A stretch of DNA of 64,000 bases, taken from Thermoleophilia bacterium (GTDB lineage: Bacteria; Actinomycetota; Thermoleophilia; RBG-16-64-13). The translations under genes and the position numbers were made by a program. Location of the stretch: the NCBI GenBank assembly GCA_040772905.1, contig JAXGXJ010000015.1, forward strand, positions 465 to 64,464, written 5' to 3'. The notes under the pieces were generated by a model. It made no database searches and was not told where the DNA came from. It saw nothing but the letters and a program-made list of their open reading frames with translations. This document shows, piece after piece, positions 41,180 through 58,851 of this stretch. The stretch's first letter is position 1; each line of letters begins with the position of its first letter.

Positions 41180-41199
41180 CACGCGTCCCAATCTGGCTC

Positions 41200-41244: not shown

Positions 41245-41319
41245 AGGGCCCGCCGCCGCGCGCGTCCCGCGATGCTGCGGCGCTATACTGAGACACCGTT
41301 CCCGTCGCGAGGAGGCTGC

Positions 41320-41649
41320 ATGGACCACCGCATGACCACTACCTGCCTCACCGTCCCCGGTTACAGGGTGGTCCAGACTCTGGGGGTGGTGCGGGGAGTG
41401 ACCGTACGGGCCCGCTGGATCGGGAGCCAGGTGGCTGCGTCCCTCCGCACCTTGGGAGGCGGGCGCATCCCCGAGTACATCGAACTGTGCGAGCAGACCA
41501 GGGCTGAAGCCTTCGATTGGATGGTCCAGCATGCCGAGCACATGGGCGCGAACGCCGTCTTGGGCGTGAAGTACGATGCCACCGATCTGGGGAACAACAT
41601 GACCGAGGTGCTGGCGTACGGCACCGCTGCCATCATCGAGCCGGAGTGA
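41320..41649 (+). CDS. YbjQ/UPF0145 (DUF74) family protein
   Basis: MDHRMTTTCLTVPGYRVVQTLGVVRGVTVRARWIG...ANAVLGVKYD...VLAYGTAAIIEPE. The rest of ORF 41035..41649 is a spurious extension. Confidence 0.7.
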   Translation: MDHRMTTTCLTVPGYRVVQTLGVVRGVTVRARWIGSQVAASLRTLGGGRIPEYIELCEQTRAEAFDWMVQHAEHMGANAVLGVKYDATDLGNNMTEVLAYGTAAIIEPE

Positions 41650-41679
41650 CCCCGGCACCACCACTGAGAGAGGAGCACC

Positions 41680-42702
41680 ATGAAGAAGATCGACTTCGAG
41701 ACCCATTTCATCACCCAGGAGTGGTACGACACTCTCTCCGCCAACCAGGGGTTCCCTCGTTTCCAGCGTTCTCCCGAGGGTAACCTTCGCCTCTACTATC
41801 ACGCCGACGCCTGTGAGCCTTTTGGAGAAGCCCTCATAGAGAAGCTGCTGGACGTCGGTGACGGCCGTATCGCGCAGATGGACGCCGCGGGTATCGACGT
41901 GGCCATCATGTCACTCACCGCACCGGGCGTGGAACAGTTGGACCCCCTTCTGGGAGCCAGGCTGGCGCGAAAGGCGAACGACGCGCTGGCCGAGGCCTGC
42001 GCCGCCCATCCCGACCGCTTCCAGGGCTATGCCGCCCTCGCGGTCAAAGACACCGAGGGAGCCGTCCAGGAACTCGAGCGTGCCGTAAGAGAGTTGGGCA
42101 TGAAGGGTTGGAAGACCCACAGCAACTACGGCGATTCCTATCTGGACGAGAGGCGCTACTGGCCCATCCTTGAGAAATGTGCGGAGCTGAACGCCCCCAT
42201 CTATCTGCATCCCACCACCCCCAAGATCCCTGAGACTTGGACCTATGGGGTCGCGCTGGCCGGACCTCCGTTCGGCTTCGCCATGGAGACCTCCATGGCC
42301 GCCATGCGCCTGGTGCTAAGCGGAGCCTTCGACGCCTTCCCCAACCTCAAGGTCATCCTGGGGCATCTGGGAGAGGGACTGCCCTTCGCCATGCAGCGCA
42401 TGGACTGGGCCTTCGAGCGTCCTCACGTGAAGGCCGATAAGGGAGCGGTGGTGCCTCTGGCCAAGAAGCCCAGCCAGTACTTCCGCGACAACTTCATGGT
42501 CACCACCAGCGGTAACTACCTACCGGCCGCTTTCAGGTGCACGCAGGACGGGCTGGGCATGGACCACATCATGTTCGGCACCGACTACCCGTACGAGGAC
42601 CTGGGCGAATGCATGCCGTTCTTGCAGAGTCTGGGGCTCTCCCAGGCTGAGGAGGAAGCTCTCTACGAGGGTAACGCGGGGAGCCTGGGCATCACCGCCT
42701 GA
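41680..42702 (+). CDS. Amidohydrolase-2 (PF04909, ACMSD/LigW-type) metal-dependent hydrolase or non-oxidative decarboxylase
   Basis: 340 aa, MKKIDFETHFIT..., with a His/Asp pattern (HxH N-terminus, HLGEGLPF, FGTDYPYE). RBS GAGAGGAG. Confidence 0.75.
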   Translation: MKKIDFETHFITQEWYDTLSANQGFPRFQRSPEGNLRLYYHADACEPFGEALIEKLLDVGDGRIAQMDAAGIDVAIMSLTAPGVEQLDPLLGARLARKANDALAEACAAHPDRFQGYAALAVKDTEGAVQELERAVRELGMKGWKTHSNYGDSYLDERRYWPILEKCAELNAPIYLHPTTPKIPETWTYGVALAGPPFGFAMETSMAAMRLVLSGAFDAFPNLKVILGHLGEGLPFAMQRMDWAFERPHVKADKGAVVPLAKKPSQYFRDNFMVTTSGNYLPAAFRCTQDGLGMDHIMFGTDYPYEDLGECMPFLQSLGLSQAEEEALYEGNAGSLGITA

Positions 42703-42818
42703 GAAGACGGGGCGGTCGTGACGCGCGGGCGTGGCTGCCGCGCGAAGTGAGACATGACACGGGCGCCGGCGCGGCTTGGCCGCGCCGGCGCCCCGTCATC
42801 CAAGTCGGTCTCAGCCTC

Positions 42819-43160
42819 CTAGGCCAGAGCTGCGAATCCGGTCTCCCCGGTGCGTATGCGCAGACACTCCTGCATCTCGAGCACGAAGATCTTGCCGTCG
42901 CCGATATTGCCTGTACGGGCCCCGCGTGTGATGGCATCCACCGTCTCCCATACCCGGCTGTTGCTCACCGCTATCTCGATCTTGATCTTGTGCAGCAGCC
43001 CACCGCGCTCCACGTGGCTCCGGTAGACCTCGGCGATACCTTTTTGCCGGCCTCGCCCCATCACGTCGGAGACGGTCATCAGGTTGATCTCCTCCTCGCT
43101 CAGGGCCTCGATCACGGCATCCAGCCGATCGGGTTGGATGATCGCGATGATGTATTTCAT
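42819..43160 (-). CDS. glnK: Nitrogen regulatory protein P-II
   Basis: True start is MKYIIAIIQP. The T-loop region is RGRQKGIAEVYRSHVERGGLLH. It lies immediately downstream of amt (17-bp gap). Confidence 0.9.
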   Translation of the reverse strand: MKYIIAIIQPDRLDAVIEALSEEEINLMTVSDVMGRGRQKGIAEVYRSHVERGGLLHKIKIEIAVSNSRVWETVDAITRGARTGNIGDGKIFVLEMQECLRIRTGETGFAALA

Positions 43161-43177
43161 GCTCGTCTCCTCCTGCA

Positions 43178-44437
43178 TTAGCCGACGACCGTGTATGCGG
43201 ACTCTCTGTGCTGAGTGAGGTCGAGACCTATGTTCTCCTCATCGGAGGACACACGCAGCCCCACAAGCTTGTCTACGAGTTTCAAGAGACCCCAGGATAA
43301 TACGAACGAGTACACCGCGCAGACCGCAAGTGCGCCGAACTGGATGAGCAACTGCATGGCGTCTCCTCGGAAGAGGCCGTCTGCACCGCCGGGGTTGACC
43401 GCCGTGCTGGCCCACACACCAGTGAGCAGCGCCCCCACCATGCCGCCCACCCCGTGCACGCCGAAGGCGTCGAGAGAGTCGTCGTAGCCCAGCTTGTTCT
43501 TCACCACCACCACGGCCACGTAGCACACCAGACCGGAGAGGGCACCGATAGCCATGGCACCCAATGGGCTGACGAACCCGGCGGCCGGGGTGATGGCCAC
43601 CAGACCGGCCACCGCTCCGGAGATGATGCCCAGAGCGGTCGGCCTTCTGCGCAGCACCCACTCGAGCACGGCCCACGCCACGGCCGCGGCTGCGGCGCCC
43701 AGGTGTGTGGCCACGAACGCCGAGGCGCCCAGTCCGTTCGCTCCCAAGGCGCTACCCGCGTTGAACCCGAACCATCCGAACCACAAGAGCGCCGCGCCAA
43801 GGATGGCGAGAGGGAGATTGTGAGGAGGCGAGCTCTCCGGATAGCCTTTGCGTCTGCCCAGCACCAGGGCGGCGGCCAACGCAGCCATACCGGCATTGAT
43901 GTGCACCACGGTCCCACCGGCGAAATCGAGCGCACCCAATTCGCGCAGCCAGCCGCCCACACCCCACACCCAGTGAGCCATGGGATCGTAGACGATGGTG
44001 ACCCAAAGGAACGAGAAGAGGAGGAAGGCACTGAACTTCATGCGCTCGGCGAAGGCCCCGATGATGAGGGCGGGAGTGATGACGGCGAACATCATCTGGA
44101 ACACCATGAACAGCGAGTGTGGGATGGTGGCGGCATAGTCGGGGTTGGGTTCCTGCCCCACGCCGATGAGCCCCGCCCAGCCGAAGTCGCCTATCACGCC
44201 GCCGTGATCCGACCCGAAGGCGAGGCTGTAGCCGAAGAGCGCCCACTGGATACTGATGACACCCAGCAGCATGAAGCACTGCATCATGATGGAGAGGACG
44301 TTCTTACGCCGCACCAGTCCGCCGTAGAAGAAGGCGAGGCCTGGGGTCATGAGCATCACGAGAGCGGTGCTGATGAGCACCCACCCCGTGTCTCCCGTGT
44401 CTAGCCCTGTCATCGTCACACTCCTCTCGCCCGTCAT
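43178..44437 (-). CDS. amt: Ammonium transporter
   Basis: 419 aa, multi-TM, with Amt/MEP signatures (DFAGGTVVHINAG...; GVHGVGGMVGALLTG). Confidence 0.9.
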   Translation of the reverse strand: MTGERSVTMTGLDTGDTGWVLISTALVMLMTPGLAFFYGGLVRRKNVLSIMMQCFMLLGVISIQWALFGYSLAFGSDHGGVIGDFGWAGLIGVGQEPNPDYAATIPHSLFMVFQMMFAVITPALIIGAFAERMKFSAFLLFSFLWVTIVYDPMAHWVWGVGGWLRELGALDFAGGTVVHINAGMAALAAALVLGRRKGYPESSPPHNLPLAILGAALLWFGWFGFNAGSALGANGLGASAFVATHLGAAAAAVAWAVLEWVLRRRPTALGIISGAVAGLVAITPAAGFVSPLGAMAIGALSGLVCYVAVVVVKNKLGYDDSLDAFGVHGVGGMVGALLTGVWASTAVNPGGADGLFRGDAMQLLIQFGALAVCAVYSFVLSWGLLKLVDKLVGLRVSSDEENIGLDLTQHRESAYTVVG

Positions 44438-44604
44438 AGACCTTGTACAGTGTCTATTAGACCGGGCGCGGAGTGCCCTGATAACTTCCCAAGGCCCAAA
44501 CCGCAGGGGCCTTCTTTGTACTTATGGACAACTGTCCGTCGATCCCGCTGCATTGGCGACCCTGACGAGGTCGGACGGCCGCAACGGGTGCCCCGCCTCG
44601 ACGA

Positions 44605-46284
44605 TCAGTCGAGGAAGAGACTGCGGGCCTTGAGCCCCAGTCCCAAGCGCTCCTTGTGCTCCGTCTGGAACACGCTCAGACCGCTCACCTCGGCGATCTT
44701 CTCCAGCCGGTAGCGGATGGTATGGCGATGGGCATAGAGGTCGGAGGCGGTCTTCGTGAGGCTCTCGTTGTTGGCGAAGAAGGTGGCCAACGTGTGCACC
44801 AGTTGGGTGCCGTTCGCTCGGTCGTATGCATCCACCGGACCGATGGACTCCTCGTACAGGGCGCGCACCTGGTCGGGATCACGTTCCCAGATGTCCAGCA
44901 GCAGACGGTAGCTGCCCACCTCGTTGAAATGTAGGAGCCCTCCCGGCCCCTGCAGCTTGCGCGACACCTTCACGGCCACCAGAGCCTCCTGATAGCCGCG
45001 ATGCAACTGATTGGGATCGGGGACGAAGCTGCCGATGCCCGTGGTGATACTGAGTCCGGCATCGGTGTGACCGAGTCCGTGCAGCACCTTGGCGATGCGC
45101 GACACCGCCGCGGCATCCTGCGCCGTCTCGCCGCAGAGGAACACCACCACCTGCCCCGACTTCAGGCTCACCAACGAAGACACCTCGGCCGTGGACACGT
45201 AACGTGAACAGCGGCTGAAGAAGCGCTCCACCCGCCTGTCGAGGTCTTCGTGGTCGAGCACCCGCCGCGACCCGTAGCCCGCGAACTCGTCCACGCCCAG
45301 CAGGACGACGGTCGCCCCTTGACTCAGATCGCATCCCAGGAAGGCGCCGCGGCGCAGCAGGGAATCGGACGAACCCCCGCTGCCGCTGATGAGATCGTCG
45401 AGAAAGTCACCCTTCAGGCGCACCTCGGTCTCGAACCTGGCCCGGTCCTGAGCCACCTCCAGATTGGCGATGGTGGCGGCATGTTCCAGCACCATCATCT
45501 CGATGCTGCTCAGTTCCGGCTGGTCGCTTATGACGCACATGTAGCCCTGGCTCTGATGCCCCGCCACGATGGGCAGGACGAACATGTGTGGCACACCCTC
45601 TTCTTGAAGATGGAACAGACGGCCACTCCGCCCCAGCGTCCTGAAGGCGTCGCGCACCCGGGGCAGCCGGTGTATCTCCGGTGTCTCGTACCCGCGCTCC
45701 TCGAGCAGGGCGGTCGCCAGCGGCTCCAACGAGATATCCAGGAACACCACGGGCATGTCCAGCAGCCGGGCGGATTCGCGGGCCAGATCGCCCCAGTCGC
45801 CACCGCGGATCACCACTCCCAGCAGCGCGCGATGGATCTGCTGCGACTTCTCCAACTGCGAAGCCTGCTGGTCGATGATCACCTCGGTGACATCCTGCAT
45901 GAGCTGGGTCCAGCGCAGCCCTTGCGGTACTTCCACGATGGGGAACTTGCGCCTGTCGGCCAGTTGGATGATGTCGGCCGGGATGGTCTCCACGAAACGC
46001 GTGGTCTTCACCATGAGGGCGGATGCGCCCGCCAACATGACCTTCTGACAGAACTCTCGTTGGCGCTCGATGTCGCCCTTGAAGGCGAACATAGTGGAGA
46101 GGACGATCTCACCTCCTGACAGCCAATCGGCGATGTCGGGCACCTCTCCCACAGTGACCGAGCTGACGCGACGCCCCAGCCCTTCGCTACCCGCAAGGAC
46201 ACGGGCGTCTTTGAGGACCTCGAGCGCGAGTATCTTTTCCACGGAGACCGGCATGTCGAGTTCACGATAGCATCCCCGCGTCAT
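44605..46284 (-). CDS. PucR-family transcriptional regulator (purine catabolism regulator-like N-domain, GGDEF-like middle, C-terminal PucR HTH)
   Basis: The C-terminus reads LVHTLATFFANNESLTKTASDLYAHRHTIRYRLEKIAEVSG. The start is uncertain (46284 or 46254). Confidence 0.75.
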   Translation of the reverse strand: MTRGCYRELDMPVSVEKILALEVLKDARVLAGSEGLGRRVSSVTVGEVPDIADWLSGGEIVLSTMFAFKGDIERQREFCQKVMLAGASALMVKTTRFVETIPADIIQLADRRKFPIVEVPQGLRWTQLMQDVTEVIIDQQASQLEKSQQIHRALLGVVIRGGDWGDLARESARLLDMPVVFLDISLEPLATALLEERGYETPEIHRLPRVRDAFRTLGRSGRLFHLQEEGVPHMFVLPIVAGHQSQGYMCVISDQPELSSIEMMVLEHAATIANLEVAQDRARFETEVRLKGDFLDDLISGSGGSSDSLLRRGAFLGCDLSQGATVVLLGVDEFAGYGSRRVLDHEDLDRRVERFFSRCSRYVSTAEVSSLVSLKSGQVVVFLCGETAQDAAAVSRIAKVLHGLGHTDAGLSITTGIGSFVPDPNQLHRGYQEALVAVKVSRKLQGPGGLLHFNEVGSYRLLLDIWERDPDQVRALYEESIGPVDAYDRANGTQLVHTLATFFANNESLTKTASDLYAHRHTIRYRLEKIAEVSGLSVFQTEHKERLGLGLKARSLFLD

Positions 46285-46373
46285 ACCAACTATCGATGGC
46301 TTACCCTGAGCCGCTCCAACTGCTATCGTCGCCCACTGGTGTGATCATCCACAAGGAAGAGGGCGGTTCTTAG

Positions 46374-47705
46374 GTGAGTGCGGAACTGGGCGGTGAACTC
46401 GGGTATTGGACGCTGGCACCGTTTGCTCTGATGTTGTTGAGCATCGCTGTGCTGCCACTGGTGGCGGAGAAATGGTGCGCCCACAACCGCAACAAAGGCA
46501 TCATCTCCGCCGTGCTGGGCATACCCACCGTCATCTACCTCCTGGTGCGCTTCGGTGACACCGGATTGGAGGCCACGGCCCACACGGCCGAGGAGTACGT
46601 GCAGTTCATCATGCTGCTGCTGGCCCTCTACACCATCTCCGGCGGCATCCACCTGACCGGCAACCTGGTGGCCACACCACGCATCAACCTGGGCTTCTTG
46701 GCGGGCGGTGCGGTGCTGGCCAGCTTCATCGGCACCATGGGCGCATCCATGCTGCTCATACGACCGTTGCTGCGCGCCAACTCGGAACGCGTGCACAACA
46801 AGCACACCGTCATCTTCTTCATCTTTGCCGTCTCGAACATCGGGGGCATGCTCACCCCCCTGGGCGACCCGCCACTCTTTCTGGGCTTCCTCCGCGGTGT
46901 GCCCTTCGCGTGGACCCTCACCCTATGGCCGCAGTGGCTCCTGGGCGTGGGCCTCACACTGCTGGTCTACGCCGCCTTCGAGTCCTACCAGTACCGGCGC
47001 GAGCCCCCCCGGGCGCGCGCGATGGACGTGGCCGACTTCGTGCCCATGCGCATCAAAGGGGCCGTGAACATCCTGCTGTTCGTGCTGGTGATCGCGACCA
47101 TCCTCTTCTCGGGTCCTCTCGCCCGGGTGGGCGAGGCCGTCCATTTCCCCTTCGTCCGTGAGGTCATCTTGGCCGTCTTCATAGTGGCTTCGCTCAAGAT
47201 CGGTCCTCGTGGACCCCGGAAGGCCAATCATTTCAGCTGGCATCCCATCGTCGAGGTGGCGGTGCTGTTCGCGGGCATCTTCGCCACCATGATCCCCGCC
47301 CTTGCACTCTTGCAGGCCAAGGGGGCCGCCATAGGGTTGAGCGCCCCCTGGCAGTACTTCTGGTCCACCGGAGCGCTGTCGTCGTTCCTGGACAACGCCC
47401 CCACCTACCTGGCCTTCTCGTCGGTGGCGCAAGGCCAAGTGGGCGTGGAGACCATCGGTGCGCTCACCTCCACCGCCGTGGTGGAGGGACTGGGCCTGAG
47501 CGCGGCCCAGCTTCTCACCGCAATCTCGTGCGGAGCCGTGATGATGGGTGCGAACACCTACATCGGCAACGCGCCCAATCTGGCCGTCCGCTGCATCGCC
47601 GATCAGTCGGGCGTGAAGATGCCCTCGTTCCTGGGGTACATGGCATACTCGCTGGGTATTCTGCTCCCCATCTTCCTGATCGTCACCGCCGTCTTCTTCC
47701 TCTAG
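46374..47705 (+). CDS. Ion-transporter-superfamily permease (ArsB/NhaD/CitMHS-like)
   Basis: 443 aa with about 11 TM segments in a two-repeat architecture. GTG start with AAGGAAGAGGG upstream. Confidence 0.6.
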   Translation: MSAELGGELGYWTLAPFALMLLSIAVLPLVAEKWCAHNRNKGIISAVLGIPTVIYLLVRFGDTGLEATAHTAEEYVQFIMLLLALYTISGGIHLTGNLVATPRINLGFLAGGAVLASFIGTMGASMLLIRPLLRANSERVHNKHTVIFFIFAVSNIGGMLTPLGDPPLFLGFLRGVPFAWTLTLWPQWLLGVGLTLLVYAAFESYQYRREPPRARAMDVADFVPMRIKGAVNILLFVLVIATILFSGPLARVGEAVHFPFVREVILAVFIVASLKIGPRGPRKANHFSWHPIVEVAVLFAGIFATMIPALALLQAKGAAIGLSAPWQYFWSTGALSSFLDNAPTYLAFSSVAQGQVGVETIGALTSTAVVEGLGLSAAQLLTAISCGAVMMGANTYIGNAPNLAVRCIADQSGVKMPSFLGYMAYSLGILLPIFLIVTAVFFL

Positions 47706-47966: not shown

Positions 47967-50900
47967 ATGGCTACGCTCGGCATTGACATCGGCTGCATAA
48001 GCGTCAAGATCGCCATCGTCGGGGAACCGGAAGAGCAGGACCTGTTCCGCGACATCGCTGCGTCGTCTCCCCTCTTCCACGACCCGGTGGTAGCCGGGCG
48101 GGTGGCTCCTCACCCTGGTTCACCGCCGGTGCTGGCCACCAAGTACCGACGCATCAAGGGCAGCCCCACCGAGACTGCGCGCGACCTCCTGCAGCAGGTC
48201 ATGGATGCGCTGCCCGACGGTCTCATCAAGGCCGCCGGGGTCACCGGCACGGGCGGCCGATTGGTCGGCCGGATGTTGGGCCTCCCCTACGAGAACGAGT
48301 TCAGAGCCATCGCCCGCGCCGTGGGGGCTATGCACCCCGACGTCACCACTGTGTTCGAGATGGGCGGTGAGACCTCCAAGTTCATCCAGTTGGAGACCGA
48401 TGCCACTTCGGGCCGTGTGGGCATCGCCGACTACGGCACCAACGGTGACTGTGCCGCCGGCACCGGCTCCTTCATGGACCAGCAGGCCAACCGCCTGCTC
48501 TATGACATCGAGGACGTGGGTGAGATAGTGGGCGGGGCCGGCAAGGCCGCGTCCATCGCCGGGCGCTGCTCGGTGTTCGCCAAGTCGGATATGATCCACG
48601 CTCAGCAAAAGGGCTACCAGCCGCCAGAGGTGCTGAAAGGTCTCTGCAACGCTGTGGTGCGCAACTATCGCAGCACCATCGCCAAGGGCAAGGACATCGG
48701 CGCCCGGGTGGCCTTCATCGGGGGCGTGGCCGCCAACCTTGGAGCCGTGACGGCCATGCGCGAGGCCTTCGACGTGGACGAGCAGTCACTCGTCATCCCT
48801 CAGTACTACGCGTGGATGGGCGCCATAGGCACCGCCTTGACGGCCGCCGACGAGATGAGCGGCACTCAGGTGGTCACCTTCAACGCCCAGAAGCTCTCCC
48901 AGGGACAGCAATCCGAGTTCGAGACCAGCCCCGCCCTCTCCATGGAGCGGGTCATCCTTCTGCGCGACCGGGTAAAGCCCTACGAGTTCCCCGCACAGGG
49001 CACCATCGGCGCCTACCTGGGCATCGACATCGGGTCGGTCTCCACCAACCTTGTGGTCCTCGACGAGGACGGTGAGATGGTGAAGGAGATCTACGTGAAG
49101 ACCGACGGCCGGCCTGTGGAAGTGGTGAACAAGGGCCTGGCCGAGATCTGGAACGAGATGGGTGACCGCCTGGAGATCCTGGGTGTAGCCACCACAGGGT
49201 CCGGTCGCGAGCTCATCGGCGAGCTGGTCGGTGCCGATACCGTGAACGACGAGATCACCGCCCACAAGACGGGCGCCACCTTCATCGGGCGCAAGCTCAT
49301 CGACCGCGTGCCCGACACCATCTTCGAGATCGGCGGACAGGACTCCAAGTTCATCAGCCTGCAGGACGGCGTGGTGGTGGATTTCGCCATGAACGAAGCC
49401 TGTGCCGCCGGCACCGGCTCCTTCTTGGAGGAGCAGGCCGACAAACTGGGCATCCGCATCATCGGCGAGTTCGCCGAACTGGCACTGTCTTCGGAGGCTC
49501 CCGTGCGTCTGGGAGAGCGTTGCACCGTGTTCATGGAGCGTGACGTGAACTCCTACCTACAACGGGGAGCCGACAAGAAGGACCTCGTGGCCGGATTGGC
49601 CTACTCCATCGCCTACAACTACCTCAACCGCCTGGTGGGGCAGCGCCACGTAGGCGATACCATCTACTTCCAAGGCGGCACGGCCTACAACGACGCCGTG
49701 GCCTCCGCCTTCAGCATGATCCTGGAGAAGGACATCATCGTGCCGCCGCACAACGGCGTGGTGGGAGCCATCGGAGCCGCCCTCTTGGCCCGCGAGAAGA
49801 TGTCGGCCACCAAGGCCCCTTCCCGCTTCCGGGGCTGGGACCTGGAGCAGGTCGACTACACCGTCCGCGAGTTCACCTGCAAAGGGTGCAGCAACGAGTG
49901 CGACATCCGCCAGTTCACCATCGGCGGGGAGAAGACCTACTGGGGCGACAAGTGTTCAGACCGCTATCGCAAGCGGGCCAAGGTGGACAAGGAGCCCATC
50001 ATCCGCGACCTCATCGGTTTCCGCGATGCGCTCTTCTACTCGTACGTGACGGAGGCGGAGGACACCGCGCCCCTGCTGCGCAGCGGCACTGACGCGCCGC
50101 GCGGCACCATGGGCATACCCCGCACCATGTATACCTACGACCGCCTCCCCTTCTGGGCCACCTTCTTCAAAGGCTGCGGGTTCGACATCATGCTGTCCCG
50201 CCAGACCGACAAGAAGATCCGCGAGATGGGCATCGAGCGGGCGGTGGCTGAGCCTTGCTTCCCCATACGGGTAGCCCACGGACATGCCGCCGAACTGCTG
50301 GAGGCGGGCGCCGACCACATCTTCATACCCAACCAACTGAACGAGGAGACCGATCAACCCGGCATCGAGTCGCACGCATGTCCCTGGGGGCAGACACTCC
50401 CCCACGTGATCCGCCTCGCGCCGCATTTCGAGAACCATGCCGAGCGTTTTTTCGCCCCCACCATCCACTTCCGGCGGGGGCCTGCCTATGTGGGACGCAC
50501 GCTTCGTGCGGCCATGAAGCCCTACGGTGTGCCGGGCAAGGTGGTCGACCAGGCCCTCAAGGACGCCTACGAGGCCCAGGCCGAGTTCCGCGCTCGTCTC
50601 ATGACCGCAGGCGCGGACGCTCTGTCCACCCTGGAGGAGCACGACGAACTGGGCATCGTCTTGGTGGGACGCCCGTACAACATCTACGACTCGGGCGTCA
50701 ACATGGATATCCCGGCCAAGCTGCGCCGCTATTACGGTGTCAACATCATTCCCCTCGATTTCCTGCCCTTGTGGGGCAAGGAGACGCGCGAGGTGACGCC
50801 CAACATGTTCTGGAACTACGGGCGCAAGATCCTGCAGGCGGCCAAGGTGGTGGCGGCGCATCCCAACCTGCACATCATCTACATGACCAACTTCAAGTGC

Positions 50901-51092
50901 GGCCCCGACTCCTACGTGAAGCATTTCATCAGAGGAGCGTCATCGGAGCCGTTCCTGGTGCTGCAGTTCGACGAACACACCAATGACGCCGGCGCCATGA
51001 CCAGATGCGAAGCCTATCTGGACAGCAAGGGCTTCCTGCGCTGGTGGGCACGCGGCGACAGGGTCGCGAAACAGACCGTGAGGGAGAGCTAG
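47967..51092 (+). CDS. CoA-substrate-specific enzyme activase: two tandem BadF/BadG/BcrA/BcrD (HgdC-like) ASKHA ATPase domains fused to a Cys-rich DUF2229-like domain
   Basis: 1041 aa. It has two repeats of the activase pattern (LGIDIGCISVKIAIV...CAAGTGSFMDQQA; LGIDIGSVSTNLVVL...CAAGTGSFLEEQA). The C-terminal 400 aa carries CKGCSNECD and other conserved Cys. Confidence 0.75.
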   Translation: MATLGIDIGCISVKIAIVGEPEEQDLFRDIAASSPLFHDPVVAGRVAPHPGSPPVLATKYRRIKGSPTETARDLLQQVMDALPDGLIKAAGVTGTGGRLVGRMLGLPYENEFRAIARAVGAMHPDVTTVFEMGGETSKFIQLETDATSGRVGIADYGTNGDCAAGTGSFMDQQANRLLYDIEDVGEIVGGAGKAASIAGRCSVFAKSDMIHAQQKGYQPPEVLKGLCNAVVRNYRSTIAKGKDIGARVAFIGGVAANLGAVTAMREAFDVDEQSLVIPQYYAWMGAIGTALTAADEMSGTQVVTFNAQKLSQGQQSEFETSPALSMERVILLRDRVKPYEFPAQGTIGAYLGIDIGSVSTNLVVLDEDGEMVKEIYVKTDGRPVEVVNKGLAEIWNEMGDRLEILGVATTGSGRELIGELVGADTVNDEITAHKTGATFIGRKLIDRVPDTIFEIGGQDSKFISLQDGVVVDFAMNEACAAGTGSFLEEQADKLGIRIIGEFAELALSSEAPVRLGERCTVFMERDVNSYLQRGADKKDLVAGLAYSIAYNYLNRLVGQRHVGDTIYFQGGTAYNDAVASAFSMILEKDIIVPPHNGVVGAIGAALLAREKMSATKAPSRFRGWDLEQVDYTVREFTCKGCSNECDIRQFTIGGEKTYWGDKCSDRYRKRAKVDKEPIIRDLIGFRDALFYSYVTEAEDTAPLLRSGTDAPRGTMGIPRTMYTYDRLPFWATFFKGCGFDIMLSRQTDKKIREMGIERAVAEPCFPIRVAHGHAAELLEAGADHIFIPNQLNEETDQPGIESHACPWGQTLPHVIRLAPHFENHAERFFAPTIHFRRGPAYVGRTLRAAMKPYGVPGKVVDQALKDAYEAQAEFRARLMTAGADALSTLEEHDELGIVLVGRPYNIYDSGVNMDIPAKLRRYYGVNIIPLDFLPLWGKETREVTPNMFWNYGRKILQAAKVVAAHPNLHIIYMTNFKCGPDSYVKHFIRGASSEPFLVLQFDEHTNDAGAMTRCEAYLDSKGFLRWWARGDRVAKQTVRES

Positions 51093-52460
51093 GTGGATAC
51101 CGAGACCGCGACCACGAGCGGCAACGGCAAGGCCAGCCGCGAGGCGGCCGAGGCGGCACTGGCCGCCATGCCCAAGGCCGTGGCGGCCCACGGGGCCGAC
51201 GACAGCCCGGTCGATACCGACATCGACATCCATGACCGCACGCTGTGGCTCACCCACATGCCCTACGGGGGCTCGGTGATGCTCGCCGCGGCGTTCCGTT
51301 CCATCGGGCTCGACACCCGAGTGGTCCCTCAAGAGGACAGCCGCATCCTGGAACTGGGCGGCAGGTACACCTCGGGCGACGAATGCTATCCGCAGCGCAT
51401 CGTCTTGGGCGACTATATGAGACTGCTGGAGGACGAGAAGATCGATCCCAAGAAGACCGCCTTCCTCCTCCCCACCGCCAACGGGCCCTGCCGCTTCGGG
51501 CAGTACGTCGGGCTGCTGCGGCGCGTGCTCGACGACCAGGGCTACCAGGATGCCGCCATCCTCTCGTTCACCTCCGCTGACGGATACGCCGGCATCGGCG
51601 AGCAGGCCTCCGCACTCATCCGCACTGCCTGGCGCGCCGTGCTGGTGCAGGATATCCTGATGAAGCTGTTGCTCATGACGCGCCCGTACGAAGTGAACGC
51701 CGGCGAGACCGACCGGGTGTACCTGGCGGCTCTCGAGCAGATGGGCGAGGTGGTCGCCCGGCAAGGCATCGACCAGAAGGAACGTCTGGCCGACATCAAA
51801 GCGGGGTTGTCGCGGGTGAAGAAGGCCTTCCTCGACATCCCTGTGCGCGACGAGGACCGGCCGCTCATCGGCGTGGTGGGTGAGATCTTCTGCCGACTCA
51901 ACACGTTCGCCAACAACGATCTCATCAGGCACGTGGAGGCCCAGGGCGGCGAGTGCTGGCTGGCCGGGGTGGGCGAATGGGTGTGGTACACGAACGAGGA
52001 GGCCTTCCGCCGCCACCGCGAGGAGCGGCGGCGTGTGAGCAAGGACTGGCTGAAGACCTTCATCACCGCGCGCATCATGCATGCGGACGAAGAGGCCATC
52101 ATGGCGGACTTCCACGATGTGTTCGCGCACCACCCTGAGCCGCACGTGACCGAGGTGCTGAAGCACGCCGAGCCCTACCTCCCCCAGTCGGGGGCCTTGG
52201 GCGAGATGGTGCTCTCCACCGGCGGGGCCGTCTACCTGTACCACCAAGGAGCCGACGGCATCATCGACATCAGTCCGTTCACCTGTATGAACGGCATCGT
52301 CACCGAGGCCATCTATCCACGGGTGAGCAAGGACCACGATGGCATCCCCATCCGGGTCTTCTACTTCGACGGCACGAACAGTGACCTCGATCGTGACGTG
52401 GGCATCTTTTTGGAGTTGGCGAAGACCTACAAGCGGCGCAAGAAGATCCAGCGCCCCTGA
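51093..52460 (+). CDS. Acyl-CoA dehydratase-like (HGD-D / DUF2229-related) Cys-rich partner protein of the activase
   Basis: 455 aa. The GTG start is immediately after the activase stop. Conserved Cys are present (GDECYP, GPCRFGQY, GGECW, SPFTCMNG). The family assignment is tentative. Confidence 0.5.
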   Translation: MDTETATTSGNGKASREAAEAALAAMPKAVAAHGADDSPVDTDIDIHDRTLWLTHMPYGGSVMLAAAFRSIGLDTRVVPQEDSRILELGGRYTSGDECYPQRIVLGDYMRLLEDEKIDPKKTAFLLPTANGPCRFGQYVGLLRRVLDDQGYQDAAILSFTSADGYAGIGEQASALIRTAWRAVLVQDILMKLLLMTRPYEVNAGETDRVYLAALEQMGEVVARQGIDQKERLADIKAGLSRVKKAFLDIPVRDEDRPLIGVVGEIFCRLNTFANNDLIRHVEAQGGECWLAGVGEWVWYTNEEAFRRHREERRRVSKDWLKTFITARIMHADEEAIMADFHDVFAHHPEPHVTEVLKHAEPYLPQSGALGEMVLSTGGAVYLYHQGADGIIDISPFTCMNGIVTEAIYPRVSKDHDGIPIRVFYFDGTNSDLDRDVGIFLELAKTYKRRKKIQRP

Positions 52461-52504
52461 GCCGAAGCCGATGACCCCATCCCGGCCGGAAGGATCGTGA
52501 CCTC

Positions 52505-55111
52505 GTGTTCGCCCGGCTAGGCTCCTTCGCCGTCCGCTATCGCTGGTGGATCATCGCCGCCTGGGTAGCGGTCGCCGCCGTGCTCACCTTCGTGGCGCCC
52601 AACATCGACGACGTGGCCGTGAGCGACCAGCGCGCCTTCCTGCCCGACTCGGCCCCCAGCCTGGACGCAAACCAGATGCTGGAGACGTACTTCCCCGACC
52701 GGGTCTCGCCCTCCAGCGCCGTACTGGTGGTCGACGCCGGCCCGGGTGGCCGAGTGGACGCGGGACCGGCCTCTACGTTCATGGATGATCTGGGCACCTG
52801 GCTCACCGGACCCGACGCGCCGGAGACGGTCGACCAGGTCTTCTCTCCGCGCATCGGCGACGACCTCACCCGCGCGAGTCTCACCAGCGAGGACGGCCAA
52901 GTGGCCCTGGTACTGGTCCGCTTCACCAAGGTCGGCACCGAGCCGGCAACCAAGGAGGCCATGGCCGCCATCGACGCGCGCTTGGACCAAGCCCCCGCCG
53001 GAGTGCAGGCCTACATGACGGGCGACGGTCCCATACTGGGCGCCTACGGCGCCAACACCAAGGGCAGCGTGGACTCCACCACGTGGATCACCATAGTGCT
53101 GGTGGTGGTCATCCTGCTGGTGATCTACCGCTCGCCCATCAGCCCGCTCATCCCGCTCTTCACCATCACGGTGGCCTATCTCATCTCGCGGGGGGTGGTA
53201 GCCTACTTGGGAGCGCACGCCCTCACCATCTCCATGTACACCAACGTCTTTCTCATCGTGGTGCTGTTCGGCGCCGGCACCGACTACTGTCTGTTCCTCA
53301 TCAGCCGTTTCCGCGAGGAGATGGCGGGCGCATCGCATTCCGGACCCGCGGTGAAGACCACAGTGCGCGCGGTGGGCGCCACCATCGCCTCCAGCGCGGG
53401 CACGGTGATCGTGGGCCTGGCGATGATGACCGCCGCCGAGCTGGGGCTCTACAACACCAGCGGTCCCAGCCTGGCCATCAGCGTGGCCTTGACCTTGCTC
53501 GCGGGACTCACCCTCACGCCGGCCATCCTGGCCGTGCTGGGCCACTACTCGTTCTGGCCCCGCCACGCGCGCCCCTTGCGTGAGACCGGCGTGTGGCACG
53601 CCTGGGCCCGCAAGGTGGTCAGCCGTCCCCTGGTGGCGCTCCTGGTGCCCGCAGTGGTGCTCATCCCCTTGGCCGTCTACGGCGGCGGCCTGGCTCGGGA
53701 CTTCGACATGCTGGGCGACCTCTCCAAGGAGAACGAGGCCCGCAGAGGCTTCGACCTCTTGGCCGAGCACATGGGAGCCGGGGCCATGCAACCCCTCAAC
53801 GTCATTGTGCGGGACGAGGCCGGCCTCGACACCGCAAGCGGCCTCGAGCGCACCGAGGAACTGGGCGCCCAGCTGGCCGCACTACCCGGAGTGGCCCTGG
53901 TGAGGAGTTTGACCTCCTCGCTGCCCGATGAGAAGACCCTCAGCGTCAGCGATCAACTGGGTGTGCAGGCGGCAGCCGTACGAGACGGCGCGGCGCAGCT
54001 CGAGAGATGGATGCAGAGCAGCCTGCTGCTCGAGCAGATGATGGGGGGCGACCCAGCCGCCTCCAGCCTACTCAGCGAGACGGCGGCCGGCCTGGTGGAC
54101 GTGTTCGGCTACCTCACGCAGTTGGCCGGGGACTATCCAGAGATCCTGCAGGAGGCAGGATTCAAGAAGGCGTCCGATGCCCTCGCCCGGCTTGCTCAGC
54201 TCTCACAGACCCTTGAAGCGGCAGAAGGTGGCGACGGCGCCCAGACCCTCGCCCTGGCCAAGGATGCCCTCCCCCAGCTGGACGCACTGGCTGAAGGGCT
54301 GGAGGAACTCCGTGACGGCTGGGCGTCACCCCCCGGCATCATCCTGCTTCCCGACCTGTATCTCAAGAACAATGAAGGTCTGAAGCAGTTGCGCGACGCC
54401 TATCTGTCTGCCGACGGTACCGCCGCACGGCTGCAGGTGGTACTGGAGTCCGGCCCCTACACCAACGAGGCCCTGGAGACGACACAGTCACTGCGCGTCA
54501 CGCTGCAGGAGGCCGGGTTCGAGGGCGGTGTGGAAGGCAACTCCTCGGTGATGCTCGACCTGCGCGACGCCGCCAACCGCGACATGACCCGGGCCATCGT
54601 CTTCGTGTTGGGCGGCATATTCGTGGTGCTGCTGTTGCTGCTGCGGGCGCTGGTCGCACCCATCTATCTCATCCTCACCATCCTGCTCTCCTATGCGGCA
54701 ACCCTGGGTGTGGTGAGGCTGCTGTTCGTCGATCTGCTGGGCACCAGCGGCATCGTGTGGTGGGTGCCGCTCTTCATGTTCGTGATGCTGGTGGCTTTGG
54801 GCATGGACTACAACATCTTCCTCATCGGCAGGGTGAAGGAGGAGGTGGCCCGCGGCGGCACGCGCGCAGGCACCCGACTGGCCCTGGCCCGCACCGGCGG
54901 CATCATCACCTCCGCCGGCATCATCGTGGCAGGCACGTTCGCCAGCATGACCAGCGCCAGCATCATGGGACTGCTGCAGATCGGCTTCGCTGTGGCCTTC
55001 GGCGTGCTGCTCGACACCTTCGTGGTCCGCACCACCCTGGTGCCCGCCATCGCGGTCTTGCTGGGACGTTGGAGTTGGTGGCCGGCGCGCCGCGCAGCGC
55101 GCGAGGACTGA
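52505..55111 (+). CDS. MMPL-family (RND superfamily) membrane transporter
   Basis: 868 aa with two 6-TM bundles separated by large soluble loops. The N-terminus is MFARLGSFAVRYRWWIIAAWVAVAAVLTFVAPNIDDV, typical of MmpL. Confidence 0.8.
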   Translation: MFARLGSFAVRYRWWIIAAWVAVAAVLTFVAPNIDDVAVSDQRAFLPDSAPSLDANQMLETYFPDRVSPSSAVLVVDAGPGGRVDAGPASTFMDDLGTWLTGPDAPETVDQVFSPRIGDDLTRASLTSEDGQVALVLVRFTKVGTEPATKEAMAAIDARLDQAPAGVQAYMTGDGPILGAYGANTKGSVDSTTWITIVLVVVILLVIYRSPISPLIPLFTITVAYLISRGVVAYLGAHALTISMYTNVFLIVVLFGAGTDYCLFLISRFREEMAGASHSGPAVKTTVRAVGATIASSAGTVIVGLAMMTAAELGLYNTSGPSLAISVALTLLAGLTLTPAILAVLGHYSFWPRHARPLRETGVWHAWARKVVSRPLVALLVPAVVLIPLAVYGGGLARDFDMLGDLSKENEARRGFDLLAEHMGAGAMQPLNVIVRDEAGLDTASGLERTEELGAQLAALPGVALVRSLTSSLPDEKTLSVSDQLGVQAAAVRDGAAQLERWMQSSLLLEQMMGGDPAASSLLSETAAGLVDVFGYLTQLAGDYPEILQEAGFKKASDALARLAQLSQTLEAAEGGDGAQTLALAKDALPQLDALAEGLEELRDGWASPPGIILLPDLYLKNNEGLKQLRDAYLSADGTAARLQVVLESGPYTNEALETTQSLRVTLQEAGFEGGVEGNSSVMLDLRDAANRDMTRAIVFVLGGIFVVLLLLLRALVAPIYLILTILLSYAATLGVVRLLFVDLLGTSGIVWWVPLFMFVMLVALGMDYNIFLIGRVKEEVARGGTRAGTRLALARTGGIITSAGIIVAGTFASMTSASIMGLLQIGFAVAFGVLLDTFVVRTTLVPAIAVLLGRWSWWPARRAARED

Positions 55112-55298
55112 CCGGGTCTTCTTGCTTTTTGCGAGGATAACGCGGCGGCGCCCGACTCTGTTCCGATAATGCCTCATGCCCTTCCAAGGGTGGGGTGGAC
55201 CCCTTTATTTCCCTGGTGTTTGCGGGGATTCTGTGTTAGCGTCGAAGTACCGTTGTGCCGCGCAGGGAGCGGCGATACACGCGCGAAGCGGGGTCCCT

Positions 55299-55396: not shown

Positions 55397-58027
55397 ATGG
55401 CAGAAGAGAAGATGACAGCAGCACCCAAGTACAAACCCGACAGGACGGTCATCAGGGGCCTGGCTCTGGGCGGTCTGCTAGGCGGCTGCGACCCGGCCGC
55501 GGTGGACGTATCCGACGGGAAGATCGTGCGCGTGCGCCCCATGCATTTCGATTGGAAGTACCCCCGCGAGAGCTTCCGCACTTGGAAGTTCCAGCGCGGT
55601 GAGCACGTCCTCGAATCGAACTACAAGGGCATGCCCGCCCCCTGGTCGCTGTCGTATAAGAAGCGCACCTATTCCCCCAACCGCATCCAGTACCCCATGA
55701 AGCGGGTGGACTTCGATCCCAACGGCGAGCGCAACCCCCAGAACCGGGGCAAGAGCAAGTACGTGCGCATCTCCTGGGACGAGGCCACCGACCTCATCGC
55801 CTCCGAGATCAAACGCATCATCGAGAAGTACGGACCGCTGGCCATCCTGGCCCAAGGTGACGGCCACGGCGAGAACAAGATCATCAACACCCCGCACGGC
55901 CACCAGGCCCGTCTGCTGGAGATGCTGGGCGGCTTCACCCAGCAGGTCCGCAATCCCGACAGCTGGGAAGGCTTCTACTGGGGCTCCAAGCACGTATGGG
56001 GCCAGGGCATCGTGGGCATGATGGATCCTTCCGACAACTGCGTGAAGGACATCACCGAGAACGCCGAGTTGGTGCTGTTCTGGGGTTGCGACCCCGAGAC
56101 CACTCCCTGGGGCTTCGTGGGCCAGTTCGCCAGCCGGCTGTGCTACTTCTGGACCGACTGCGGCATCAAACAGGTGTACGTCTGCCCCGACCTCAACTAC
56201 GGCGCGGCCGTGCATGCCGACAAGTGGATCCCTGTATGGCCCAACACCGACGCGGCCCTGCAGTTGGCCGTCATCTACGTATGGCTCCAGGAGGGTACCT
56301 GGGACAAGGAGTACGTCGCCACCCACGCGGTGGGCATGGAGCACGTGGAAGCGTACGTCCTGGGCAAGGACGACGGCGTACCCAAGACTCCTGCCTGGGC
56401 GGCGGAAAAATGCGGCGTACCCGAGTACACCATCAAGGCACTGGCCCGCGACATGGCCGCCAAGATCCACACCTGGGCGCACTACTTCGGCGGCAGCTAC
56501 GCGCGCGGACCCTACAGCCACGAACCCGCCCGCCTGGAGTGCATCATGCTGGGCATGCAGGGCTTGGGCGGCCCGGGCCGGCACCAGATCCAGATCTCCT
56601 ACGGCGGCATGCCGAGGCCGGAACTCATCCGCAGCACCCGCTTCTTCAACCCGCAGCTGTCGCAGCGGCTCACCAAGCCCACCCAGACCACCATCCGCGC
56701 GTGGGGTCCACAGCTCATACCCAAGACCCTCATCCACAAGGCCATCCTCGACCCGCCGCTGGTGTTCTACGGCAACGGCGGCATCGAAGAGCCGGTGGAG
56801 GATCAGTTCGTCAGGTACGAGTACCCCATCGCCAAGGAGAAGGGCGGCACCGAGATCCACATGATGTGGACCGACACCCCGTGCCGCATCACCTGCTGGA
56901 ACTGCGGCAACGAGACCATAATGGCCGAACGCAGTCCCAAGATAGAGTTCATCGTGGCGCAGCATCCCTGGCTGGAGAACGACTGCCTGTACGCTGACGT
57001 GATCCTGCCCACGAACACGCTCATGGAAGTCGACGACATCATCACCAACACCCGGCAGGGCACGCAGCACCACGCCGTGGTCCTCTACGACAAGGCTGTG
57101 GAGCCGGTGGGCGAGTCGAAGAGCGACTATGAGGCCGTCCTCGAGGTGGCCAAGAAGCTGGGCAGAGGCGAGGAGTTCAGCGAGGGCAAGAGCATCAAAG
57201 ACCTGCAGCAAGAGGTCTTCTACAACATGAACCTCGACACCAAGATCTCCTGGGAGGAGTTCGAAAAGAACCAGTACGTCATCCTGGAGACGGTCGAGGA
57301 CTGGGAAGACGACGTGGTGGCCCTGCGGCCGTTCTACGACGATCCCGAGAAGCACCCGCTGCCCACCCCCTCGGGCAAGCTCGAGTTCTACTCGCAGCGC
57401 ATCGCCGATAACTTCCCCTGCGACGACGAGCGACCGCCCATCCCGAAATGGATCGAGCGGAGCGCTATGCACGACGAGCGCCGCAGCAGCTGGCGCGCCA
57501 AGGCCTACCCACTGCTGCTCATGTCCAACCATCCGCGCTGGCGTACCCACGCCCAGGCCGACGACATCACGTGGAGCCACGAGATAGTCACCTGCAAGGT
57601 GAGAGGCTACGACGGCTACCTGTATGAGCCGGTGTGGATCCATCCCTCCGATGCCGCGACACGTGGCATCAAGGACGGCGACATCGTGATGGTGCACAAC
57701 GAGCGCGGCATCGTGCTGTGCGGCGCCCGCGTATGGGAGCGCGTCTTCCCCGGCACAGCTTATGTGGATCACGGTGCCCGGCACGATCCCATCATCCCGG
57801 GCAAAGTGGACCGCGGCGGTGCCATCAACACCATCTCCGGCGACTGGATCTCGTCCAAGAACGCCGTCGGCCAGGCCACCAGTGGTTACCTGGCCGAGGT
57901 GAGTTCCATCCCGCCCGGCCTGATGGAGCAGTGGAGAAGAGAGTATCCCGAAGCCTTTGAACGCCCCTACGACCCGGCTGCCGGGCTCAAGTTCGAAGCA
58001 TGGGTGACCAAAGGGGGTGCGGAGTGA
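55397..58027 (+). CDS. Molybdopterin (bis-MGD) oxidoreductase alpha subunit, pyrogallol-phloroglucinol transhydroxylase (AthL)-like, third paralogue
   Basis: 876 aa. MAEEKMTAAPKYKPDRTVIRGLALGG...DGKIVRVRPMHFDWKYP...MKRVDFDPNGERNPQNRGKSKYVRISWDEATDLIASEIKRIIEKYGP is colinear with the other two alphas. RBS GGAGCGGAG. Confidence 0.9.
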   Translation: MAEEKMTAAPKYKPDRTVIRGLALGGLLGGCDPAAVDVSDGKIVRVRPMHFDWKYPRESFRTWKFQRGEHVLESNYKGMPAPWSLSYKKRTYSPNRIQYPMKRVDFDPNGERNPQNRGKSKYVRISWDEATDLIASEIKRIIEKYGPLAILAQGDGHGENKIINTPHGHQARLLEMLGGFTQQVRNPDSWEGFYWGSKHVWGQGIVGMMDPSDNCVKDITENAELVLFWGCDPETTPWGFVGQFASRLCYFWTDCGIKQVYVCPDLNYGAAVHADKWIPVWPNTDAALQLAVIYVWLQEGTWDKEYVATHAVGMEHVEAYVLGKDDGVPKTPAWAAEKCGVPEYTIKALARDMAAKIHTWAHYFGGSYARGPYSHEPARLECIMLGMQGLGGPGRHQIQISYGGMPRPELIRSTRFFNPQLSQRLTKPTQTTIRAWGPQLIPKTLIHKAILDPPLVFYGNGGIEEPVEDQFVRYEYPIAKEKGGTEIHMMWTDTPCRITCWNCGNETIMAERSPKIEFIVAQHPWLENDCLYADVILPTNTLMEVDDIITNTRQGTQHHAVVLYDKAVEPVGESKSDYEAVLEVAKKLGRGEEFSEGKSIKDLQQEVFYNMNLDTKISWEEFEKNQYVILETVEDWEDDVVALRPFYDDPEKHPLPTPSGKLEFYSQRIADNFPCDDERPPIPKWIERSAMHDERRSSWRAKAYPLLLMSNHPRWRTHAQADDITWSHEIVTCKVRGYDGYLYEPVWIHPSDAATRGIKDGDIVMVHNERGIVLCGARVWERVFPGTAYVDHGARHDPIIPGKVDRGGAINTISGDWISSKNAVGQATSGYLAEVSSIPPGLMEQWRREYPEAFERPYDPAAGLKFEAWVTKGGAE

Positions 58028-58851
58028 AGGCGTTCTTCATCGATCTTTCCATCTGCAACGGCTGCTACTGCTGCCAGGTGGCCTGCAAGGACGAGCACTG
58101 CGGCCAGGACTGGCTCCCCTATGCCAAGGCGCAGCCCGAGATCGGCCAGTTCTGGCTGGGTATCGACGAGCGCGTGCGCGGGCAAGTGCCCAAGGTGAAG
58201 ATCACCTATCTGCCCAAGCTCTGCCAGCACTGCGACGATGCGCCCTGCATGGCCGCGTGCCCGGTGGAAGGCGCCATCTACAAGCGCGAAGACGGCATGG
58301 TGATCATCGACCCGCAGAAGTGCACGGGCTGCAAGCTCTGCGTGGATGTGTGCCCGACCGGGTCCATCTTCTTCAACGACAGCCTGATGCTGGCGCAGAA
58401 GTGCACCGCCTGCTCGCACCTGCGCGACAACGACCCCGAGACTTGGGCCGACACCACGCGCTGCGCCGACGCCTGCCCCACCGGAGCCCTGCGCTTCGGT
58501 GACGAGGCGGACTTCGCCGACTTCATCAAGGAAGCGGAATACCTGGTGCCCGAGATGGCCGGCAAGACGCGGGTCTACTACAAGAACCTGCCCAAGAAGT
58601 TCGTGGCCGGCACCCTGTACGACCCGAAACAGATGGAGATCATCGAGGGCGCGACCGTGACCCTCACCGACGACCAGTCGGGCGAGACCTTCACGGCCAC
58701 CACCGACAACTACGGCGACTTCTGGTTCAACGGCCTCAAGGATGACCGCACCTTCACGCTGGTGTTCGCGAAGGACGGCAAGAGCAAGACCATCGAGGGC
58801 GTCTCCACGGCGATCGACCTCAACGTGGGCGACATCGCCATGGAGTTGTAG
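58024..58851 (+). CDS. Transhydroxylase-like beta subunit (BthL-like), third paralogue
   Basis: The GTG start overlaps the alpha3 stop (GTGA). VKAFFIDLSICNGCYCCQVAC..., CQHCDDAPC, CTGCKLCVDVC, CTACSHL, and the C-terminal beta-sandwich domain are present. Confidence 0.85.
   Translation: MKAFFIDLSICNGCYCCQVACKDEHCGQDWLPYAKAQPEIGQFWLGIDERVRGQVPKVKITYLPKLCQHCDDAPCMAACPVEGAIYKREDGMVIIDPQKCTGCKLCVDVCPTGSIFFNDSLMLAQKCTACSHLRDNDPETWADTTRCADACPTGALRFGDEADFADFIKEAEYLVPEMAGKTRVYYKNLPKKFVAGTLYDPKQMEIIEGATVTLTDDQSGETFTATTDNYGDFWFNGLKDDRTFTLVFAKDGKSKTIEGVSTAIDLNVGDIAMEL

Follow-up and report, generated by a model that had tools for sequence, protein, structure and literature searches.

A split PlsA/PlsR-like gene pair followed by an MMPL transporter gene in a Thermoleophilia bacterium: a candidate ATP-driven ether-lipid synthase

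Positions 47967-55111 of a 64-kb window of Thermoleophilia bacterium DNA (the whole stretch analysed, about 65% G+C) hold three genes that encode a 1041-amino-acid (aa) protein, a 455-aa partner and an 868-aa MMPL-family RND transporter. The best explanation, to which we assign a probability of roughly 0.6, is that the first two proteins form a reductase, powered by ATP and dependent on Fe-S clusters, which converts acyl esters of glycerolipids to vinyl or alkyl ethers, and that the third is an RND transporter of lipid type. The enzyme family in question consists of oxygen-sensitive, ATP-dependent enzymes of the benzoyl-CoA reductase/2-hydroxyacyl-CoA dehydratase type (BCR/HAD, or 'archerases'), which form ethers by reducing the carbonyl of acyl esters in membrane glycerolipids. 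Databases name the large proteins "acyl-CoA dehydratase activase" and the partner "hypothetical", and a preliminary description of the window had called the architecture functionally unassigned, a label that is out of date given that the PlsA/PlsR and Ger enzymes share it. A giant activase beside a phenol-type molybdenum (Mo) enzyme is most likely a membrane-lipid enzyme and no component of aromatic degradation, which corrects a tempting case of guilt by association.

The PlsA/PlsR proteins of Clostridium perfringens constitute an anaerobic plasmalogen synthase of the BCR/HAD family. Two genes in an operon encode the enzyme there, and most other bacteria use one gene for a protein of about 1400 aa (PMC12838417; PMC9702350). 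The mechanism proposed for these enzymes comprises two sequential one-electron reductions of the ester, followed by protonation and dehydration (PMC8788747). In the glycerol ester reductase Ger of T. maritima, a variable tail follows two PF01869 domains and a single PF09989 domain (BBDHDDH; Sahonero-Canavesi et al. 2022, PMC13159169). Ger has been described as a 'modified PlsA', and its expression in anoxic E. coli leads to 1-alkyl glycerol monoethers (PMC13159169). All of the experimentally tested DUF2229 proteins found in the literature make ether lipids (PMC13159169, PMC12838417, PMC9702350, PMC8788747, PMC13274423).

For comparison with verified enzymes, an exact scan of the genome collection with the C. 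perfringens plsA primer (first 22 nucleotides (nt), PMC12838417) returned two Clostridium records. The operon of the Clostridium locus L010 (531-4729) encodes a 975-aa PlsA and a 420-aa PlsR and measures 4199 bp, which, going by the account in PMC12838417, is the exact size of the fragment cloned by Jackson et al. Even with 3 mismatches allowed, the C. perfringens reverse primer has no site in L010, so the locus belongs to a close relative and not to strain HN13. Against Enterococcus faecalis PlsA, identity is 50% for its PlsA and 41% for its PlsR, within the published ranges of 48-55% and 41-42% (PMC12838417), and these identities together with the 4199-bp length make L010 a valid stand-in for the C. 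perfringens operon. The E. faecalis plsA gene (L011, 1622-5869) was recovered by primer from metagenome contigs and is 4248 bp long, as published.

The 1041-aa protein aligns with L010 PlsA at 28% identity over 987 aa (E 4e-115) and with E. faecalis PlsA at 30% over 944 aa (E 9e-120). The partner aligns with L010 PlsR at 23% over 394 aa (E 5e-33) and with residues 1011-1410 of E. faecalis PlsA at 23% over 409 aa (E 2.5e-30). Both window proteins match E. faecalis PlsA in order and are collinear with the Clostridium operon too, which has the same Pfam pattern as the window pair, i.e., BBD and then a partner with a weak DUF2229 match only. An exhaustive phmmer search with the partner yielded 2415 representatives at E <= 1e-3, many of them about 1400 aa long and matched at residues ~1000-1400, with 29-39% identity to the partner across the fused matches listed. 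In BLAST comparisons with ten fused relatives, the large protein falls on residues 1 to ~1000 (34-42% identity) and the partner on residues ~1000-1400 (32-36%). Since both proteins map to consecutive regions of the same fused proteins, the window pair represents a split ~1400-aa enzyme.

The gene for the large, PlsA-like protein (47967-51092, forward strand, ATG start) encodes two ATPase modules, a 4-Cys linker and a first reductase half, in that order. PF01869 (BcrAD_BadFG) matches in two stretches (E 5e-69, Pfam), as does the TIGR00241 acyl-CoA dehydratase activase domain (E 1.5e-76, NCBIfam), and PF09989 (DUF2229) covers residues 714-932 with profile positions 1-217 of 218 (E 2.8e-55, Pfam), so that the fusion of ATPase modules to DUF2229 is confirmed. 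Module 1 (47970-48857, forward strand, residues ~2-297) is the second PF01869 stretch and contains the motifs DxGxxxxK, EMGGETSK and GGVAAN, as read in translation, and the predicted cluster ligands C162 and C201; an internal-repeat high-scoring segment pair aligns it with module 2 of Clostridium PlsA. Module 2 (49017-49790, forward strand, residues 351-608) spans PF01869 profile positions 1-271 of 271 and has C479 and C519 as predicted ligands. It matches HgdC (1hux_A) with E 1.2e-31, and C479 and C519 are aligned with HgdC Cys127 and Cys166, the ligands of the [4Fe-4S] cluster bridging the HgdC dimer. Because C479/C519 fall on these two positions, the tandem modules should form a pseudo-dimer around one cluster. 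The two complete ATPase modules previously recognized in the protein are therefore real, each with two Cys equivalent to the HgdC cluster ligands.

The modules are followed by the 4-Cys linker (49878-49955, forward strand; C638-x2-C641-x3-C645...C663, i.e., CxxCxxxC...C), which the AlphaFold2 (AF2) model covers with low confidence and which may hold an Fe-S cluster or zinc. The first reductase half (50106-51026, forward strand) consists of DUF2229 (714-932) plus a C-terminal part. The AF2 model of residues 611-1041 has a pLDDT of 75 and a pTM of 0.77, and the best PDB fold for the first half is HadC (3o3n_B, probability 1.00, E 1.8e-5, TM 0.45-0.50), followed by the double-cubane protein DCCP (7yyl/6eno, probability 0.97-0.99). 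Cysteine invariance was assessed in alignments of the partner (A1) and of the large protein (A2), each covering Thermoleophilia, Latescibacterota and Clostridium. In A2 the invariant residues are C162/C201 in module 1, C479/C519 in module 2, C638/C641/C645/C663 in the linker, all four of which are kept from Thermoleophilia to Clostridium, and C764/C805/C978 in the first reductase half. A set of three Cys in each half marks [4Fe-4S] clusters of the HadB/HadC type, which have one open iron. The C-terminal half thus has a HAD/DCCP catalytic-subunit fold with conserved Cys, and in combination with the complete ATPase modules this supports the ATP-driven, low-potential reduction put forward earlier as the right class of chemistry.

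The partner, a PlsR-like second reductase half (51093-52460, forward strand, GTG start), has only a sub-threshold match to DUF2229 (E 1.6e-4), which recurs in 16/16 family members tested. It contains five Cys in total, for which 'Cys-rich' was a generous label, and three of them (C98, C133, C398) are invariant in A1. The two reductase halves are weakly paired by hhalign, C98 with C764 and C133 with C805. Of the domains named in the preliminary description, PF01869 and PF09989 are matched as above, and PF06050 (HgdAB/BcrBC family) has no Pfam match in either the 1041-aa or the 455-aa protein; in fused relatives, fragments of PF06050 are matched where the one or the other half ends. Both window proteins end in tails that are found in the split clade and are absent from Clostridium, ...DSKGFLRWW in the large protein (51027-51089) and the basic ...TYKRRKK in the partner (52419-52457). 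It is tempting to speculate that these conserved tails serve as membrane-surface anchors for a lipid substrate.

With the cluster types and electron path that we infer for the pair, the two fused ASKHA ATPase modules would form an intramolecular pseudo-dimer with one [4Fe-4S] cluster on C162/C201 and C479/C519, and ATP hydrolysis would push a low-potential electron onward, possibly via the 4-Cys linker site, to a heterodimer-like catalytic unit composed of the DUF2229 half and the 455-aa partner. In each catalytic half, three Cys would bind a HadBC-like [4Fe-4S] cluster that leaves one iron open. The sn-1 acyl ester carbonyl would bind to the catalytic unit, where two one-electron reductions and a dehydration would generate a vinyl ether (plasmalogen); as an alternative outcome, further reduction would give an alkyl ether (Ger-type). 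The glycerolipid substrate and the product type are likewise putative for the window pair. The MMPL protein, probably co-transcribed and with a presumed role in ether-lipid movement, would carry the ether lipid, or a product derived from it, through the membrane or out of it.

The gene layout is that of a compact unit. The GTG start of the partner gene adjoins the TAG stop of the 1041-aa gene, a Shine-Dalgarno-like run, GAGGGAGAG, lies inside the end of the first gene, and the two genes are presumably translationally coupled. The partner length of 455-456 aa is kept in more than 100 homologues, and the GTG start is therefore well supported. A spacing of 44 nt separates the partner stop from the MMPL gene (52505-55111, forward strand, GTG start), the third of the trio, and a gap of 285 nt separates the latter from a transhydroxylase-like Mo pair encoded by overlapping genes (55397-58027 and 58000-58851, forward strand), the second of which specifies the Fe-S partner. 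The three open reading frames (ORFs) of the trio agree exactly in position with the preliminary description. A consensus scan detected a candidate hairpin, weak and terminator-like, followed by the T-run TTGCTTTTTG (55103-55121, forward strand), which overlaps the MMPL stop codon. Within the trio unit, no convincing promoter was found in a sigma-70 scan, and an Rfam search of the intergenic regions detected no riboswitch or other RNA. The 868-aa transporter matches PF03176 (MMPL) in two stretches (E 2.7e-119, Pfam) and the NCBIfam MMPL family RND transporter, and its best PDB sequence matches are MmpL5 and MmpL4 (E ~5e-73, two stretches each).

A neighbour-joining (NJ) tree of concatenated sequences, in which Clostridium and Enterococcus PlsA were included as the verified members, places the split proteins of the window and of L003, L004, L007 and L008 in one tight clade that is sister to fused proteins of Brocadiia, Fibrobacterota and other metagenome organisms. 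The Clostridium PlsA+PlsR pair groups with the fused E. faecalis PlsA. As each split pair groups with fused proteins, the window and Clostridium fissions at the same boundary look independent. By this placement, the window pair appears as a distant family member outside the sole verified clade in the tree. No call is made between a vinyl and an alkyl ether product, since Ger and PlsA are not distinguishable by primary structure (PMC13274423) and the verified members of the tree are PlsA enzymes. The nearest fused relatives come from metagenome-assembled genomes (MAGs) only, with no cultured or lipid-characterised organism among the names checked. Between the Thermoleophilia-type window and L007, a Latescibacterota MAG, identity of the 1040-aa protein is 63-65%, a high value across phyla that points to lateral transfer of the pair. 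A 2026 preprint (bioRxiv 10.64898/2026.06.23.733905) lists split BBD proteins from Latescibacterota and Chloroflexota, at 63-65% identity to the window large protein, as Ger homologues of 'architecture 2', and their adjacent, separate second half goes unmentioned there.

Conservation of the neighbourhood was assessed in 14 fetched loci that represent 13 distinct places, as L005 repeats the L004 locus from another sample. The MMPL gene directly follows the pair in every Thermoleophilia-type locus sampled (L001-L005), with gaps of 9-44 nt. L001 and L002 (100% and 85% identity to the window protein) also keep the AthL-like Mo pair and the CitMHS_2 and PucR genes; L003 (74%) and L004 and L005 (70%) have quite different flanks and no Mo pair. 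In L007 (Latescibacterota) and the metagenome contigs L006 and L008 (63-65%), the pair is kept, with no MMPL and no Mo pair. Loci of fused relatives are devoid of the Mo pair as well. In L021 a PEMT-family phospholipid N-methyltransferase gene (4157-4747) lies 55 nt upstream on the same strand, in L022 (a Brocadiia MAG) a gene for the prolipoprotein diacylglyceryl transferase LGT (5580-6602) lies just upstream, in L023 a 1049-aa ORF (11278-14427) follows, and in L024 envelope sugar genes adjoin. The pair, found in more than one phylum, is thus the core, the MMPL gene is a lineage-level accessory and the Mo pair is a recent neighbour. In anaerobic Thermoleophilia, an ether-lipid synthase and a dedicated MmpL4/5-like transporter could be firmly coupled in one conserved module of three genes, a proposal that we put forward tentatively and with some doubt; no paper pairing a plasmalogen synthase with an MmpL protein was found in the literature.

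Some details of these loci concern the pair less directly. In L006, a 134-aa PF05635 (23S_rRNA_IVP) gene sits between the large-protein and partner genes. The 1049-aa ORF of L023 has no Pfam match and overlaps the stop of the fused PlsA-like gene by 4 nt, and it may encode a coupled partner of that protein. Amidohydro_2 genes near the pair in the window and in Latescibacterota were considered as a conserved link and rejected, as they are unrelated (E 0.075) and the Latescibacterota gene is lactonase-like.

Several observations weigh against assigning ether-lipid synthesis to the window pair. Identity to verified plasmalogen synthases is just 23-30%, and the verified Clostridium/Enterococcus PlsA clade of the NJ tree does not include the window clade (26% identity). 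The AF2 model of the partner is poor (pLDDT 63), its top fold, DCCP, is non-significant (E 0.06), and no PDB chain was matched by the partner in sequence or profile searches. The closest solved MMPL proteins, MmpL4/5, are siderophore exporters and not phospholipid transporters, and no paper was found that mentions both Thermoleophilia and ether lipids.

The same family and chemistry could instead be directed to a specialised hydrophobic ester, e.g., a lipophilic metabolite or a lipid that is secreted or forms part of an outer layer, and not to a bulk membrane glycerophospholipid, with the reduced product exported by the MmpL4/5-like transporter. We regard this as unlikely, although it retains some weight because the solved MMPL proteins closest to the window transporter, MmpL4/5, export lipophilic siderophores, and because the clade is distant from verified PlsA. 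The tight retention of the MMPL gene with the pair in Thermoleophilia (gaps 9-44 nt), when the plasmalogen synthases characterised to date need no transporter, would also fit an exported product, but the same clade occurs without MMPL in Latescibacterota and others, which indicates that the enzyme is independent of the transporter. Moreover, the trio unit contains no special-lipid biosynthesis genes (polyketide synthase, FAAL, acyltransferase), and relatives adjoin the phospholipid genes PEMT and LGT.

The preliminary description had proposed that the activase-type pair acts with the adjacent AthL-like Mo enzyme to dearomatise or dehydroxylate a phenol or an aromatic CoA thioester reductively. 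The Mo pair is truly transhydroxylase-like, lies 285 nt downstream on the same strand and recurs beside the pair in L001 and L002, another AthL-like pair with phloroglucinol-pathway-like genes is present in the window (3386-11706), and the ATPase modules have homologues in the benzoyl-CoA reductases. Adjacency to the Mo pair is nevertheless the sole basis for an aromatic substrate, and it is kept only at identities of at least 85%: it is gone at 74% and 70% identity while the MMPL gene stays, and it is absent in Latescibacterota-type and fused loci, such that co-occurrence with AthL-like genes is confined to L001 and L002 and is not seen in L003-L008 or L021-L024. In 9/9 distinct places sampled outside the closest relatives, the pair or its fused relative lies away from aromatic-metabolism genes, an outcome of the kind that the preliminary description had named as refuting its reading. 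The gap and the terminator-like hairpin set the trio apart from the Mo pair, neither a CoA ligase nor a CoA transferase is encoded in the trio unit, where BcrBC and PF06050 likewise have no match, an exporter is poorly suited to a CoA thioester, and the characterised DUF2229 enzymes all act on lipids. An aromatic substrate is accordingly highly improbable, and the downstream Mo pair appears to be an unrelated neighbour.

A DCCP-type double-cubane [8Fe-9S] reductase of small molecules (acetylene or other unsaturated compounds) in place of an ester reductase is the least probable explanation, for although DCCP is among the best folds (probability 0.97-0.99) and the top fold for the partner, and DCCP-R-type ATPases match the ATPase modules (7yyl_E), HadC outranks DCCP as the first-half fold, DCCPs are built as homodimers of ~420-aa chains, unlike the fused BBD window protein, and the 7-Cys motif of DCCP, with six cluster ligands per subunit (PMC7317905), is absent, with three invariant Cys in each half.

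If the ether-lipid prediction holds, Thermoleophilia join the candidate anaerobic bacterial ether-lipid producers, which bears on the reading of sedimentary ether-lipid and branched glycerol dialkyl glycerol tetraether (brGDGT)-type biomarkers (PMC13159169, PMC13274423). The three-gene module, if true, would be the first described synthesis-plus-translocation unit for bacterial plasmalogens or alkyl ethers, and it would make these uncultured Actinomycetota a source of ether lipids that has gone unrecognised in anoxic soils and sediments. The conserved MMPL gene provides a lead on the movement of such lipids. The new elements are modest, namely the conserved MMPL coupling and the predicted ether-lipid capacity of anaerobic Thermoleophilia.

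The pair downstream of the trio, the third transhydroxylase-like pair of the window, has its best PDB sequence match in the large subunit of pyrogallol hydroxytransferase (E 1.5e-118); the AthL N-terminal domain of its Mo subunit is barely recognisable (PF21423, E 0.002), no twin-arginine (RR) motif is seen in the first 100 residues, and the beta subunit has a CarboxypepD_reg domain. On the reverse strand, a strongly AthL-like Mo subunit (4317-6920; PF21423, E 2e-30) is encoded with an Fe-S subunit (3386-4354), and a second Fe-S subunit with a CarboxypepD_reg domain is found at 7133-7972. The reverse-strand set at 3386-11706 also includes a 3-hydroxyacyl-CoA dehydrogenase, two short-chain dehydrogenases/reductases and a BKACE enzyme, and as a whole resembles an anaerobic pyrogallol/phloroglucinol degradation cluster. 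An IclR regulator gene is located at 1736-2584, and a tRNA-Leu(CAA) gene (11917-12002, forward strand) is the sole Rfam or ARAGORN match in the window. A tryptophan biosynthesis operon (12598-19633, reverse strand) extends from trpA through anthranilate synthase and includes a fused IGPS-PRAI. The nitrogen-assimilation neighbourhood at 30861-47705 comprises the large and small subunits of glutamate synthase, a PPDK_N-domain protein, glutamine synthetase, an Amidohydro_2 protein, P-II with an ammonium transporter, and a PucR-type regulator. A CitMHS_2 transporter gene lies directly upstream of the trio, and CitMHS_2 and PucR are kept beside it in the closest relatives only.

Among known systems, the 2-hydroxyacyl-CoA dehydratases and class I benzoyl-CoA reductases (HgdC/HadI activators with HgdAB, HadBC or BcrBC) have in common with the window pair an ASKHA ATPase with a Cys127/Cys166-type cluster site, the HadC fold with three conserved Cys in the first reductase half, and the shared logic of ATP-driven, ketyl-type carbonyl reduction. 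They differ in that the HAD/BCR activator is a homodimer, whereas the window ATPase is a fused tandem joined to the catalytic half; the window protein has an extra 4-Cys linker, no PF06050 match and no nearby CoA-ester genes, and characterised relatives act on a lipid O-ester and not on a CoA thioester. The mycobacterial MmpL4/MmpL5 proteins share the two PF03176 stretches of the window transporter, but the window unit is without an MmpS-type partner gene and adjoins the PlsA-like pair instead of siderophore genes. The Ger proteins (T. maritima Tmari_0479, AGL49404; D. alkenivorans SHJ90043) have the same BB-D core with two ATPase modules in a single polypeptide with PF06050 fragments (BBDHDDH), whereas the second half of the window enzyme is encoded by a separate gene and lacks PF06050. 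PlsA/PlsR (C. perfringens CPE1194/CPE1195; fused PlsA of E. faecalis, L. cremoris and B. longum subsp. suis) differs from the window pair in the extra insert of ~35 residues in window module 1 and in the gene that follows, MMPL in the window and a two-component regulator in Clostridium. The order of parts is identical (ATPase, ATPase, 4-Cys linker, DUF2229 half, second half), the window split lies at the plsA|plsR domain boundary, and the same 14 Cys are invariant across full-length collinear alignments.

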